Shown here: positions 45,237 to 50,128 of the stretch, piece after piece
Position numbering within the stretch: position 1 is the stretch's first letter
How the letters are laid out: each line of letters opens with the position of its first letter
DNA from: Candidatus Obscuribacterales bacterium
GTDB taxonomy: Bacteria > Cyanobacteriota > Vampirovibrionia > Obscuribacterales > Obscuribacteraceae
DNA: 64,000 bases
Direction: 5' to 3'
NCBI GenBank assembly: GCA_965228855.1
Contig: CBDDIJ010000003.1
Location: forward strand, 1,760,001 to 1,824,000
Made by a program: the position numbers and the translations under genes
Notes under the pieces: model-generated
The model's database searches: none
Seen by the model: the letters and a program-made list of their open reading frames with translations, nothing else
What the model was told of the DNA's origin: nothing

Positions 45237-46838
45237 ATGGATAGATCATCAATGCAGACTCAAGGTCGACGCAAAGTCGCGCATAGAAATGAACGTGGAA
45301 ATCTCTACGTTCTCTATATCGGTTTTGCAGCGATGATTGTAGTTGTTTGGAACTTGTATGCTCAAGTCGGTTTATCCTTCATAATCAATTATCGAAGCAA
45401 GTGTGCACTGGAAGCCGCCTCCCTTGCGGCGGCCCGCGACCTCTCAAGAATCGTCATCGACGATCCTAAGTGGGGGTACGTGGCACTCACAGATCAACCT
45501 CCCGTTGGAGATGACACAAAGGCGGGAGATGGTTATCCACTTCCCGTGACCGGAATAAACACAATCATGGCGACGGTGCGACTGGAGATGCTGGTCGCGC
45601 AGTCACTTGGCACTAACGAAGCGATGGCTTGCGCGTTGGATGACCTTCGCACCGCACGCGCTGCTTCAAGACGTCTATCGAGGACCTTGCGCAATTCGCT
45701 CAAGAGAGAAAGAAGCAGCAATGAAGATGATAAGGAACTGGTAGCTCGAGATATCTTTGGAAACGTAGTTCGTCCCATGGACAGTGCCGCGACCGTGTAT
45801 CGCAAAAATGCCGATCAAATGCTTAGCGGTATGGGATGGAAACTTGAAAGTATGAACGCCGACCTTGGTTCGTTAACTCAGGAAGGCACGACAAATACAC
45901 CAAGTCCGGAGCGCGGTTTGTCCAACCGGACGGCGTCGGTATTCGAGCCGGAGTTGAAAAATTATCCAGCGTTTGAAGACGTCCCAGCGGCAGGCGAATC
46001 ATTCTACTTCGCCGGACTCGGGAAACAGACAAGTCTTGTTGAGCCTGCACTTTTCGATGCGTCACGCTCCGTTCAAAACAGCTCCGTGATACGTCTTGTC
46101 GCTCAGCTGAAACGAAACGACACTGATAACTGGATAAAATCTGTCGCGTGCGCTCAACCGGCATACATGGAGGATAAGGTACCTGCATCATATATGGTGC
46201 TTCGATTCCCAAACGGGATTCCAAATGGCACGGACTGCTTGAGGAGTTTGCTGACTTCCGACGGTCTATCGAAAAGAATTCCGTTGTACACCGCTTGTGG
46301 TGGCGACTTCCCGACCGATCGGGGCGCCCTGTTAAAAGAGAATCCGGACACGTCGTCCGCCACTGTTCGCCAGGCAGTTACCCGCGCATTTTTCGACTGG
46401 TTGAGAACCGCACATGCAAAACCGAAGCTAGATTCGATCATCAATGCGCTTGATTGTCAATTCAACAGCCAACACCCTTCAGCCACGTACTTATACACCT
46501 TCGACGACTGCGGCGAAATTGAGGTCGCGGCTTCTAAAGATTATCCGTTCCTCGCTCAAACTGCCTACGAAAGCCAGCTCTACGCAGTCGCAACCAATGT
46601 CATCAATCTGCACGGTGTTGTCTGGTCGTTGCGACTTCGCGATCAGGTCCATCGACTCGGCAAGCAGGAGGGCGGCAAACATGCCGGTCAACCGATGCCA
46701 TCCACGGTGGCGGTCAATCACAATCAAGACCAGGAGAAGCGGTTGCTTGCGACTGCCGGCAGCAGATACGACAGATCAAGGCTTGGTTTGGAACTCGAAA
46801 TTTCAACTCCGATAATGACTAACGGAGGCGATCTATGA
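45237..46838 (+). CDS. TadG-like pseudopilin / Tad domain protein
   Basis: RNERG followed by hydrophobic helix, then ALEAASLAAARDL. Confidence 0.65.
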   Translation: MDRSSMQTQGRRKVAHRNERGNLYVLYIGFAAMIVVVWNLYAQVGLSFIINYRSKCALEAASLAAARDLSRIVIDDPKWGYVALTDQPPVGDDTKAGDGYPLPVTGINTIMATVRLEMLVAQSLGTNEAMACALDDLRTARAASRRLSRTLRNSLKRERSSNEDDKELVARDIFGNVVRPMDSAATVYRKNADQMLSGMGWKLESMNADLGSLTQEGTTNTPSPERGLSNRTASVFEPELKNYPAFEDVPAAGESFYFAGLGKQTSLVEPALFDASRSVQNSSVIRLVAQLKRNDTDNWIKSVACAQPAYMEDKVPASYMVLRFPNGIPNGTDCLRSLLTSDGLSKRIPLYTACGGDFPTDRGALLKENPDTSSATVRQAVTRAFFDWLRTAHAKPKLDSIINALDCQFNSQHPSATYLYTFDDCGEIEVAASKDYPFLAQTAYESQLYAVATNVINLHGVVWSLRLRDQVHRLGKQEGGKHAGQPMPSTVAVNHNQDQEKRLLATAGSRYDRSRLGLELEISTPIMTNGGDL

Positions 46839-47380
46839 CCATTTGCAAAAATCGAACACGGACCAGCCGCGACCGCCGACTGGGTTCATCAATCGCAGAG
46901 TTTGGTGCAGCCTTTTACGCTTTCTTCTTCGCAATCATCATTCCAACAATCAATTTGCTGAGTTTTGCAATTGCGTTTTCCTACGCACATTTTGCCGCTA
47001 ACATGACAGCGGATTCAGTGGCTCAGTCAATGACTTTAAAGCGCGCCAGACAAATCGTAGAATGCGCACCATCAGATCTAAAAGGCGATTCGCTTGCCAA
47101 TTTTCTGAAGGTCGAACCCGGTTCCGAGCGGTTCAAACTCGACCTTGTCAGAACCAATATGCAAGGCGAAAACGAGATTCTCACCGCTAAGAACTTGAAA
47201 GATAAAGATCACAGTAAAGGGCTAATTCAGTATCGAGTCCTGGCAAATTACACCCTGCGACCGCGGCTCGATCTCGGCTCGGTTCCATTCATAAACACCA
47301 TTCCAATCATCGGCAAAGAGTCCGAGCTCACGTTTAACCTGATTAGAAACATTGAGCACGCCGATGAAATAATGAATTAA
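46835..47380 (+). CDS. TadE-like pseudopilin
   Basis: RRLG-SSIAEF prepilin motif followed by TM; ATGA overlap with the upstream gene. Confidence 0.72.
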   Translation: MTICKNRTRTSRDRRLGSSIAEFGAAFYAFFFAIIIPTINLLSFAIAFSYAHFAANMTADSVAQSMTLKRARQIVECAPSDLKGDSLANFLKVEPGSERFKLDLVRTNMQGENEILTAKNLKDKDHSKGLIQYRVLANYTLRPRLDLGSVPFINTIPIIGKESELTFNLIRNIEHADEIMN

Positions 47381-47478
47381 GTTTCCTGTGTAGTACTGCT
47401 TAACGATCCGTTGACTATCGTCAGCCTGCACTCATAATGGAATAACTGTTCATTTATCGAGTGTACTGAGAAACGATC

Positions 47479-47574
47479 ATGTTTACGAATACGTGCCACT
47501 ATATGCCGGAAATTTCCCTACGCGCCGTACCCGCGCAGTGGGTGGAAGCCGCACGTGTTCGCAACAGGGAGTGA
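47479..47574 (+). CDS. Putative leader peptide (31 aa) of an attenuator
   Basis: ATG 47479..TGA 47574 encodes MFTNTCHYMPEISLRAVPAQWVEAARVRNRE and overlaps attenuator segments 1 and 2; RBS weak. Confidence 0.55.
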   Translation: MFTNTCHYMPEISLRAVPAQWVEAARVRNRE

Positions 47575-47602
47575 TAACACTCTACTGAACTTAGCGAATC
47601 GT

Positions 47603-47633
47603 GTGAGCTTCCCAAAAGGAAGCTCATTTTTTT
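47603..47633 (+). terminator. Attenuator terminator upstream of the ABC-2 operon
   Basis: TGAGCTTCC-CAAAA-GGAAGCTCA then T7; an upstream segment can form an antiterminator. Confidence 0.8.
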
Positions 47634-47698
47634 CGCGTCCACACTTTTCAAACCGAATCAATTGGTTTGAAACAGAAACAATCTAGTTCTTATTCAAA

Positions 47699-48535
47699 AT
47701 GGTGATAGTTATGAACCTCGCAGTTGAAGTAGATAATTTACGCAAAGTGTACGAAGTGCACAAACGGCGTGGACTTTTCGCGAGAGAAAGAACTGAAGTT
47801 GTCTCGGTAGACAACGTCAGCTTCTCGGTGCCTGAAGGACAAGCGCTGGCATTTGTCGGACCAAACGGAGCCGGAAAATCTACGACCATTCGGATGTTGA
47901 CCGGCATCTTGAGACCGACAAGCGGATCTGCGCGAGTTCTGGGATTCGACCCGTGGAAGGATAGAGCGCGTATGGCGTTTCACATCGGAGCGGTGTTTGG
48001 TCAACGGTCACAGTTGTGGTATCACTTGCCTGCAGGCGATACATTCGACCTGCTCGCAAGGATCTACAACATCGATCCGCGTGAGTATAAGAAACGCCGA
48101 GACGAGCTTGTCGAGCGCTTCGACCTCGGAGCGTTGATAGACGTTCCGGTCAGAAAGTTATCGCTCGGTCAGAGAATGAGAGCTGAGGTGGCCGCAAGTT
48201 TGCTGCATAAACCCAAATTGCTTATGCTCGACGAGCCGACAATCGGCCTCGACATCAACGCGCGCCATCAATTGCGCGAACTCATCCGGGAGTGGAATCG
48301 TCGAGATGGTCTCACCGTCTTCTTAACGAGCCACGATACCGGCGACATCGAAAGTGTCGCAGAGCGCGTGATAATCATAAATCACGGTCGCATCGTTCTC
48401 GATGATACCGTCGACGATCTCCGGAATAGAAAGGAATTCGCCGGATTGAGCCTGGAAGATGCTCTCGCTCACATTTACGGACTTGAGCATGACGCCAGTC
48501 TCGACGACGACAAAGTGGAGGCACTCATATCATGA
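47699..48535 (+). CDS. ABC transporter ATP-binding protein (ABC-2 drug-exporter type)
   Basis: GPNGAGKST, FGQRSQLW, LSLGQRMR, LDEPTIGLD, LTSH. Confidence 0.95.
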   Translation: MVIVMNLAVEVDNLRKVYEVHKRRGLFARERTEVVSVDNVSFSVPEGQALAFVGPNGAGKSTTIRMLTGILRPTSGSARVLGFDPWKDRARMAFHIGAVFGQRSQLWYHLPAGDTFDLLARIYNIDPREYKKRRDELVERFDLGALIDVPVRKLSLGQRMRAEVAASLLHKPKLLMLDEPTIGLDINARHQLRELIREWNRRDGLTVFLTSHDTGDIESVAERVIIINHGRIVLDDTVDDLRNRKEFAGLSLEDALAHIYGLEHDASLDDDKVEALIS

Positions 48536-49329
48536 GCGCTTTGAAAAAATACTGGGCCATCGCCTGGATATCCGCGAAATCGAATCTCGCTTATGTCAGT
48601 GAAGTTTGGAGCAGATTGTTCTTCCTCGCTGTCATCCTCTACGTCTTCATGTGCGTTTGGAAAGCGACATTCGCTAATAATCCGGCAGGTCGATTCGAAG
48701 GATTCACCTTGAATGAAATCGTCTGGTACCTGGCCTTCGCGGAAGCGATCATAATGTCTTCTCCGCGCGTGACTCCACTCGTTGATGAGGACGTGAGAAC
48801 CGGAGCCATTGCCGTGCAGTTGGTGCGACCTCTGTCGTACCCTCTGTACAGGCTCGCCTCCAACTTTGGAGAACAGATTGTTCGCTTTGCCACCACATTC
48901 TTTGCGGCGGCAGTGATAGCAGTTGTTCTTGGCGGAGTCCCCGACAACTTCGCGACCGGATTGCTCTTTGCCTTGATCGTGTTGCCTTTCGCATTTGTTC
49001 TCGACTTCCTTGGATATTTGCTGGTAGGGCTCAGCGCTTTCTGGTTCGAAGATACGACCGGACTCGCTCTCATCTATTCACGATTGACGATGATAGCTGG
49101 AGGCATGCTTCTCCCGCTGGAATTGTTTCCCGAGAACTTTCGGCTTATATTGAAGGGTTTGCCCTTCGCATACATCGTGAATGGACCGGCCGGTTTGTTC
49201 GTACATCCGGACTTAACGGTATTAGGAATGGTGCTGGCCAATCAGCTAGTCTGGATAGCCGTGTTCAGTTTGCTCGTCGCGGCTGTATACAGAAAAGCGC
49301 TTGGACGCATCGCCTTGAATGGAGGATAA
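48532..49329 (+). CDS. ABC-2 type permease (DUF990-like)
   Basis: Multi-TM; DVRTGAIAVQLVRPLSY, GGMLLPLELFP, LPFAY; ATGA overlap. Confidence 0.9.
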   Translation: MSALKKYWAIAWISAKSNLAYVSEVWSRLFFLAVILYVFMCVWKATFANNPAGRFEGFTLNEIVWYLAFAEAIIMSSPRVTPLVDEDVRTGAIAVQLVRPLSYPLYRLASNFGEQIVRFATTFFAAAVIAVVLGGVPDNFATGLLFALIVLPFAFVLDFLGYLLVGLSAFWFEDTTGLALIYSRLTMIAGGMLLPLELFPENFRLILKGLPFAYIVNGPAGLFVHPDLTVLGMVLANQLVWIAVFSLLVAAVYRKALGRIALNGG

Positions 49330-49330
49330 A

Positions 49331-50128
49331 ATGTGGAATAGATTATTCAACTATCTCGGTCTTGCTGTTGCCTACTTTGGATTCAACTTCAAAGCGCAAC
49401 TCGAGTACCGCACTGCATTCGTCTCTCAATCGTTCGCAATGTTTTTGAACGACTGCATATGGCTTGTTTACTTCATCATGTTCTTTGATCGATTCAACGT
49501 CGTCAAAGGATGGCAAGCTGAAGACGTAGCGACACTATGGGCGGTGACTGCCGCGGGTTTCGGAATCGGGCACAGTCTGTTCGGTAACTCGCTCGGTTTA
49601 GCCCGGATCATTGCGAATGGCGACCTGGACGGATGGCTCTTGTATCCAAGGGCTCTTCTGCCGCACGTCGTCCTCGGCAAAATGAGCGCCAGTTCGTTCG
49701 GAGACGCTATATTCGGATATGTAGTGTATCTGGTCGTAGTGAGACCGGATTTGCCACACTTTCTCCTGTTCACAGCACTCACGTTCAGCGTAGCATTGCT
49801 GTTTCTAGGGTTCAGTGTTCTCACCGGCAGTTTGAGCTTTTTCATAGGCAACGGAGATAGCTTAAGCGAAGGCTGGCGCAACGCCCTGATTGCATTCAGC
49901 ACCTATCCGATGGATCTGTTTGACGGTAAAACCAAGCTGTTGTTATTGACGATAATACCTGCAGCTTACGTCAGCGGATTTCCAGTCGAGGCGCTCAGGA
50001 AGCTGTCGCTTTTGCACGCGGCATATAGCCTTCTTGGAGCACTGGCAGTAGTGGCAACAGCCGCGATCGTGTTTCATCTCGGATTGAGGCGCTACGAGTC
50101 AGGCAATATGGTGGCAATGCGCGGGTAG
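49331..50128 (+). CDS. ABC-2 type permease (DUF990-like)
   Basis: LEYRTAF, GDLDGWLLYP, FSTYPMDLF, GLRRYESG; GGAGG before ATG 49331. Confidence 0.9.
   Translation: MWNRLFNYLGLAVAYFGFNFKAQLEYRTAFVSQSFAMFLNDCIWLVYFIMFFDRFNVVKGWQAEDVATLWAVTAAGFGIGHSLFGNSLGLARIIANGDLDGWLLYPRALLPHVVLGKMSASSFGDAIFGYVVYLVVVRPDLPHFLLFTALTFSVALLFLGFSVLTGSLSFFIGNGDSLSEGWRNALIAFSTYPMDLFDGKTKLLLLTIIPAAYVSGFPVEALRKLSLLHAAYSLLGALAVVATAAIVFHLGLRRYESGNMVAMRG

Follow-up and report, generated by a model that had tools for sequence, protein, structure and literature searches.

The DNA analysed here (the window, 64,000 nucleotides from a Candidatus Obscuribacterales genome) carries a leader element ahead of an ABC-2 exporter operon. 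The element is real and conserved, and its sequence and computed folds indicate that it is very likely a ribosome-controlled transcription attenuator, which partly supports the preliminary description made from the sequence of the window. We consider it probable that the attenuator allows read-through when a ribosome stalls anywhere from codon 1 to about codon 15, thereby sensing shortage of any of many charged tRNAs; many rather than a single amino acid, since the sensor zone holds one-of-each residue content. The switch mechanism itself is textbook, and what is new is a leader that appears tuned for amino-acid diversity.

The exporter operon and its leader RNA

A same-strand ORF that ends at 47380 precedes the element, which is followed by the exporter operon with genes for one ABC ATPase and two permeases (Table 1). 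These two permeases are the only PF06182 matches in their genome, and PF06182 is, we take it, the same family as DUF990; an ABC ATPase with two PF06182 permeases is the make-up by which EVE/DUF990 exporters are recognised. The closest named record of the exporter permease is a Candidatus Obscuribacterales genome at 99% identity, and we found no solved structure related to it. For the ATPase, the best NCBIfam model is DrrA, with a score under its cut-off. The DUF990 family corresponds to TCDB 3.A.1.141, and ethyl viologen, exported by Synechocystis EvrABC, is the sole recorded substrate that we met for it (PMC5417439); this compound has no tie to tRNA charging, which counts against the reading preferred below. 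The ATPase probably starts at ATG 47711 and not at 47699, because homologues share a GGTGAT motif before the former, and in two of them (L003, L010) the earlier ATG does not lie in frame. The stretch from terminator to ATPase start would then measure 77 nt; the 65 nt of the preliminary description counts to ATG 47699.

Upstream, positions 45237-47380 (+) hold two ORFs of 533 and 181 aa with pilin-like N-termini. Neither matches a Pfam or NCBIfam family, and the earlier label “tadE” for the upstream gene finds no support there. Downstream, a questin-oxidase-like gene (PF14027; 50218-51336, -) is convergent with the exporter operon.

Table 1 Features of the leader and exporter operon, in positions of the window.
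Feature	Position	Strand	Basis or remark
ACTGCTTAA element, 7 nt upstream of -35	47395..47403	+	conserved; rare at own genome's other promoters
Promoter, sigma-70-type consensus TTGACT-N16-CATAAT	47411..47438	+	consensus match, upstream of leader
Leader ORF, 31 codons (MFTNTCHYMPEISLRAVPAQWVEAARVRNRE)	47479..47574	+	ORF list; conserved in relatives
Candidate sensor zone, codons 2-17	47482..47529	+	15 different amino acids in 16 codons
Segment 1, anti-antiterminator arm	47483..47496	+	leader codons 2-6; 47486-47496 paired
Inner hairpin nested in 1:2	47513..47547	+	folding and covariation in close relatives
Segment 2, pairs with segment 1 or 3	47544..47564	+	leader codons 22-29
Hairpin around leader stop codon, caps antiterminator	47565..47587	+	folding; also in relatives' folds
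Segment 3, antiterminator 3' arm	47591..47612	+	includes terminator 5' arm 47603-47612
Intrinsic terminator: 10-bp stem, 5-nt loop, T7	47603..47633	+	-14.9 kcal/mol
Segment 4	47618..47627	+	terminator 3' arm; T7 at 47627-47633
ABC ATPase	47711..48535	+	PF00005 E 4e-28; frame open from 47699
ABC-2 permease 1	48532..49329	+	PF06182 E 2e-14
ABC-2 permease 2	49319..50128	+	PF06182 E 1e-23

Transcription is predicted to start near 47444-47445. Upstream of the promoter, the ACTGCTTAA element may be an activator site or an UP-like element: CTTAA occurs at matching spacing at 12/30 exporter-leader promoters versus 1/205 promoter-like sites of the window's own genome, the one being this site. Since its carriers belong mostly to one clade, part of this conservation reflects common descent. 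The Shine-Dalgarno match of the leader is weak (-3.1 kcal/mol). Whereas the mRNA of most relatives would begin at the ATG, the clade of the window carries about 20-35 nt of 5' untranslated sequence at 47439-47478; longer leaders occur in other branches too. The leader ORF belongs to no Pfam or NCBIfam family, and Rfam covariance models gave no match to the leader region at gathering score (best E 0.99).

The region 47445-47640 folds at -67.3 kcal/mol (z = -3.63), with 1/200 shuffles equally stable. This fold contains the 10-bp terminator and helix 1:2, and the alternative 2:3 duplex reaches -27.8 kcal/mol over about 19-20 pairs. The four segments and the T7 tract of the preliminary description are all confirmed (Table 1), as are the alternative 2:3 pairing and the 3:4 terminator. 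Helix 1:2 stands where it had been placed, with 11 pairs (47486-47496 with 47551-47561) and not the 14 then claimed, and the preliminary description had missed both the inner hairpin and the hairpin around the stop codon. The main stem of the inner hairpin shows double-sided changes in 5/10 pairs among nine close relatives. A wastewater RNA run yielded a single 214-nt contig (depth 2.4) that spans 47468-47681, terminator included; since contigs show neither ends nor strand and DNA may be present, we do not count it as evidence of transcription.

Distribution of the leader and of related elements

The permease was found in 44/60 genomes of the family versus 0/40 genomes of other families, and later in 75/103. 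Two of the 44 loci taken lacked upstream DNA, leaving 42 assessable. Promoter, leader ORF and terminator occur together at 31 of these (30 by pattern, L036 by hand), and this combination is missing at 11; the promoter consensus pattern precedes 30/44 orthologous loci. As leader start we took the first ATG after the promoter, with two hand-chosen exceptions, and the terminator arms were hand-set at 7 loci. The ORFs are 23-38 codons long in 30/31 leaders. Their ATG lies 6-9 nt past the -10 hexamer in 22/31 leaders, which suggests leaderless mRNA in most relatives, and 27-41 nt past it in the other 9, the window included.

Reading frame was compared in 27 leaders, after removal of three near-duplicates and one 69-codon leader. 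Frame 0 combines at least 22 open codons with a stop 15-50 nt before the terminator in 27/27, versus 1/27 and 10/27 for the other frames, and most gaps that separate close relatives within the ORF have a length divisible by three. These observations bear on the proposal that the element is a translation-independent RNA switch, answering to a ligand or protein, with an incidental ORF. Both alternative folds are stable without a ribosome, and the weak Shine-Dalgarno match of the window would suit such a switch too. The lack of an Rfam family, the frame specificity of ORF conservation and amino-acid diversity, and the spacing of the gaps make it very improbable.

Equally tied to distribution is a reading in which nothing is regulated and the terminator merely ends the upstream gene, the other helices being by-products; it is the case that the preliminary description had named against itself. 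The upstream ORF does end close by on the same strand, and the 11 loci without such a leader among the 42 are compatible with this reading. The upstream gene, however, was seen only at the window's locus (L001) and its 99% relative (L002/L046) in the short flanks examined, and promoter, leader and terminator, unlike that gene, accompany the exporter across loci. Together with the promoter consensus in front of the leader and the co-variation of 2:3 (see below), this leaves the reading next to no probability at the level of sequence, and the leader is linked to the exporter as first proposed.

Of six family loci without the leader, several lie directly behind another gene; on the transporter tree (a quick tree with a provisional root) the leader label changes three times. 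In genus g19, five deviant leaders precede the same terminator (L040, L279, L280, L276, L277), with ORFs of 63-69 codons or more and internal repeats, or with shifted composition. Outside the lineage, sister transporters in Blastocatellia (L111) and Kofleriaceae (L121/L252) have leader ORFs of 33 and 28 codons with downstream hairpins, and the L121 leader combines a clear antiterminator fold with low amino-acid diversity. Inspection by eye revealed no obvious leader plus terminator at distant plasmid-borne members in Sinorhizobium, Bacillus and Deinococcus. The Deinococcus member (L155) has neighbours reminiscent of a biosynthetic cluster, with a gene for a phosphopantetheine-binding protein on one side and one for a PEP/pyruvate-binding enzyme on the other. 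At 20 oxygenic cyanobacterial orthologues (L070-L116) the leader is absent, and a repeated, partly palindromic GTA.TA...TGTA motif, from a pattern tuned by eye, lies about 15-40 nt before the ATPase in 20/20. We take this motif to recall GntR/YtrA operators. It suggests that control systems were swapped on one transporter.

A profile search for paralogous leaders of the exporter type in the window's own genome gave none, and the next match (E 1.7) was a Met leader. This leaderless, Met-rich leader with a terminator (L156, G000:C2 near 1924133, -) precedes cystathionine gamma-synthase; a promoter and a short Met leader ORF occur at 24/30 such loci, relatives L159-L188 included. Met and exporter leaders may share ancestry because their scaffolds resemble each other (a weak profile match). 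Two further leaders with terminator and antiterminator folds lie on G000:C3, a leaderless Thr-rich one before threonyl-tRNA synthetase (L157, near 2639744, +) and one with a Ser run before seryl-tRNA synthetase (L158, near 873570, +). With the Met leader, these two suggest that leaderless leader-peptide attenuation (Met, Thr, Ser) is in wide use among Obscuribacterales.

Pairing, folding and proposed operation of the switch

Pairs could not be counted reliably in a MAFFT alignment of 32 distant leaders, and we therefore used an alignment-free test in which duplexes of the 27 leaders with their own partner segment (cognate) are compared with duplexes formed with partner segments of other leaders (non-cognate). 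Cognate pairing was stronger for 2:3 (-21.8 vs -16.5 kcal/mol; 0/20000 permutations), for 3:4 (-16.5 vs -10.4 kcal/mol; 0/20000) and for 1:2 (-13.6 vs -11.6 kcal/mol; 0/20000, or 21/20000 with one own-genus member), and the control pairings 1:3, 1:4 and 2:4 were null. The 1:2 helix, strong in the window, is better than its own shuffles in only 7/27 leaders. For nine close relatives, 0/500 shuffles reach the covariation score of the OFF fold, and 41/500 match that of the ON fold. Of the covariation expected from the preliminary description, 2:3 and 3:4 thus co-vary by the cognate test, and the ON column score alone is not significant.

The computed switch of the window amounts to 6.6 kcal/mol and is reached by 0/40 shuffles. 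Across 30 leaders it outdid at least 38/40 shuffles in only 15, and it is negative in 6. At equilibrium the terminator state is lower in energy in 30/30 leaders, even with a ribosome mask, so read-through must be kinetic, and it may be partial. Constrained folding, put forward earlier as a check, gives no clean switch at equilibrium alone.

We computed the co-transcriptional folding path without a ribosome, hiding the last 10 nt as if within RNA polymerase. Along this path the lowest energy belongs to 1:2 between 47566 and 47618. Further on, between 47622 and 47630, the 2:3 fold is up to 2.4 kcal/mol better, yet the barrier leading to it from 1:2 is about 18 kcal/mol; the barrier from the 1:2 fold to the terminator is about 3 kcal/mol. 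When the start region is masked, 2:3 builds from 47610 on. In the window, about 9 kcal/mol must be overcome to pass from the ON fold to the terminator, which lies 2 kcal/mol lower. For stalls at codons 1-15 the terminator arm is sequestered in 21-27 of the 27 leaders, falling to 13/27 at codon 17 and 7/27 at codon 19.

In the mechanism that we propose, transcription would start near 47445 and a ribosome would load on the leader, whose ATG in most relatives would coincide with the predicted transcript start. Without a ribosome, 1:2 is computed to form first and to be kinetically trapped, after which 3:4 would terminate transcription. A ribosome running through the ORF would cover segment 2 from about codon 19, again with termination by 3:4. 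A ribosome stalled at codons 1-15 would block 1:2 and leave segment 2 free; 2:3 could then take the terminator 5' arm ahead of segment 4 synthesis, which would allow transcription of the exporter. This retains the stall logic of the preliminary description and drops its limit to the first codons, as the computed permissive zone reaches about codon 15.

Leader composition, candidate signals and known systems

For codons 2-17 of the window, the probability of 15 or more distinct residues under the proteome background is 0.0007. The 27 leaders average 13.5 distinct residues in these codons, versus 10.2 for the proteome and 11.0 for column shuffles, and 0/5000 shuffles reach the observed average. 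The p-values given for sets of leaders overstate, since the leaders share descent, and the diversity shuffles ignore phylogeny. The excess persists under gapped alignment (0/3000) and in 27 leaders less than 40% identical; codons 18-27 show no excess over the proteome. The high-diversity zone coincides with the computed permissive stall zone.

Because the excess was noticed after the fact, new loci were fetched as a held-out set. Of 64 assessable new loci 29 had a leader, and 15 leaders were kept after removal of 12 near-copies, one long leader and one Myxococcota leader; three of the 15 had already been seen before the diversity test. These 15 average 13.3 distinct residues versus 11.1 after column shuffling (0/5000), and the controls gave 10.3-10.7 (other frames) and 10.5 (nucleotide shuffles). 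Manual reading of five more leaders, which the filter had not caught, gave two that fit with 13 distinct residues, two sisters with 10 and one of the long type. The counts omit the long leaders L040, L279 and L280, as well as L276/L277 (10 distinct) and the Myxococcota leaders L121/L252 (9 distinct). A set of 22 Met leaders, chosen for at least two Met, shows no diversity excess (9.09 vs 9.01).

Individual residues follow the same pattern. Tyr occurs in codons 2-17 of 42/42 leaders, and it stands elsewhere in the zone in 13/13 leaders without Tyr6 versus 2/29 with it; likewise, Met stands elsewhere in 9/12 leaders that lack it at its usual codon versus 0/30 that have it. Tyr and Met are thus present at about one copy each, in shifting places. 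The commonest residue has at most 2 copies in 23/27 leaders and 3 copies in 4/27, and Ala is not enriched (1.01x). Asp (3/42), Trp (1/42) and Gly (12/42 leaders) are mostly missing from the zone, which weighs against the tRNA-charging reading; the window's own leader lacks Asp, Gly and Lys and has Trp at codon 21. A sensor of a single amino acid was rejected, there being no run of control codons for one residue. Sensing of queuosine codons was likewise rejected: codon 6 (Tyr or His) is never Asn or Asp, and NAC predominates.

Codon 6 is Tyr or His in 26/27 leaders and codon 7 is Met in 20/27. Codon 6 is paired within the OFF fold in 18/27 leaders, and part of its conservation may therefore be at RNA level; counts of synonymous versus non-synonymous changes within one genus, with 8 variable codons of which 3 are purely synonymous, do not decide the matter. 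The codon 6/7 pattern is kept in 9 leaders in which the codon is predicted unpaired. It could form the core of a ligand-dependent arrest peptide that stalls when the exporter substrate enters the ribosome tunnel, on the model of TnaC and SpeFL. Arrest motifs need fixed spacing, however, and with a median pairwise identity of 12% across codons 2-17 and Tyr and Met moving independently over positions 3-15, we find this explanation improbable.

Under the tRNA-charging reading, which we prefer, the selected signal would be a hungry codon for Tyr, Met, Ile, Leu, Val, Thr, Ala, Gln, Pro or others, brought about by starvation, tRNA-synthetase inhibitors or amino-acid analogues. The pump would then likely expel the offending compound, and we infer this as the weakest step of the mechanism. 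Ribosome antibiotics that stall early would induce as well.

Such antibiotics might even be the main target of selection, with stalls near the start codon or in drug contexts as for bmrB, vmlR and toiL. Stalls at codons 1-5 trip the computed switch in 23-25/27 leaders and the target is an ABC-2 exporter, which would suit a drug sensor; a varied peptide might offer many drug contexts. To our knowledge, though, no known drug stall context demands exactly one Tyr and one Met at movable positions. The macrolide motif R/K-x-R/K occurs in codons 2-18 of only 1/42 leaders, and a Y-M leader pattern precedes this exporter in 23/26 family matches and no other resistance gene (the remaining 3/26 lie away from the exporter, none with the promoter-leader-terminator layout). 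Among characterised systems, bmrCD is induced by antibiotics in this way (PMC4191407), and toiL senses five drug classes at different codons (PMC12121999); the start-codon sensors of vmlR and cplR, in turn, are only 3-4 codons long (10.1101/2022.12.05.519065). Stalling at the start codon or by macrolides would leave the residue composition unexplained. We therefore regard selection mainly by drugs as unlikely, and the drug stall on the first codons, which the preliminary description took as the main signal, has no need of the zone's one-of-each content.

Going one step further than tRNA-charging sensing as such, we tentatively suggest that the leader is an evolved checklist of aminoacyl-tRNAs: selection would keep one codon each for as many residues as fit the 15-codon window, so that any tRNA-synthetase inhibitor or toxic analogue would induce the pump. 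If so, these bacteria would have in their EVE/DUF990 exporters a broad protection from tRNA-synthetase inhibitors and toxic amino-acid analogues, and amino-acid diversity in upstream ORFs (uORFs) would be a searchable signature for such sensors. For this lineage, it would also give a first clue to the function of an exporter family that is poorly characterised. In titles and abstract openings, subscription journals and supplementary tables aside, we found no literature on this element, on Obscuribacterales attenuators or on diversity-selected leaders.

The 1:2 / 2:3 / 3:4 logic is shared with the classical amino-acid leader attenuators of the trpL/thrL type. The Met leaders of the same lineage resemble the exporter leader in length, leaderless position and spacing, but have 2-6 Met in codons 2-17, where no residue occurs more than 2-3 times in the exporter leader. 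The 20 oxygenic cyanobacterial orthologues carry their short repeated motif upstream in place of a leader, and EvrABC is likened to the present exporter by its layout of one ATPase and two permeases.

In Bacillus subtilis, too, translation of the bmrB leader governs transcription attenuation ahead of an ABC exporter, bmrCD, and loss of the bmrB start codon results in low, uninducible expression (PMC4191407); its terminator lies inside a 53-codon ORF, whereas here it follows the stop codon by 28 nt, and transporter family and phylum differ. For vmlR, cplR and lsaA, a stall on the uORF likewise relieves premature termination, but these uORFs span 3-4 codons (MIN, MRI, MAGN) compared to 23-38 here, the targets are ABC-F proteins, and the cplR terminator hides the ribosome-binding site of its gene (10.1101/2022.12.05.519065), whereas the gene here starts about 77 nt downstream. 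Mycobacterial poly-Cys short ORFs are leaderless sensory ORFs at the operon head as well, yet they respond to a single amino acid and act on translation of the downstream gene instead of on termination (10.1101/834739).

Closest in breadth is actinobacterial whiB7/wblC, with a uORF, an intrinsic terminator and an antiterminator, in which complete translation leads to termination and a stall to read-through. Antibiotics elicit a response, as does a lack of amino acids for which the uORF has codons, and in M. smegmatis this uORF codes for all amino acids but Cys (PMC10274678, PMC11550727); uORF composition decides which starvations induce whiB7, and in mycobacteria a single Trp codon sets the response to Trp shortage (PMC10274678). 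The accessible parts of these papers report no selection for diversity (PMC10274678, PMC11550727). That system controls a transcription factor with feedback through an Ala-enriched uORF, in contrast to the exporter and unenriched Ala here, where 16 codons concentrate the diversity and Tyr and Met move in a compensating manner. In summary, known leader attenuators are either single-amino-acid meters with codon runs or drug sensors with short or motif-bearing uORFs, and a leader under diversity selection would be a compact third design that reports tRNA charging in general.
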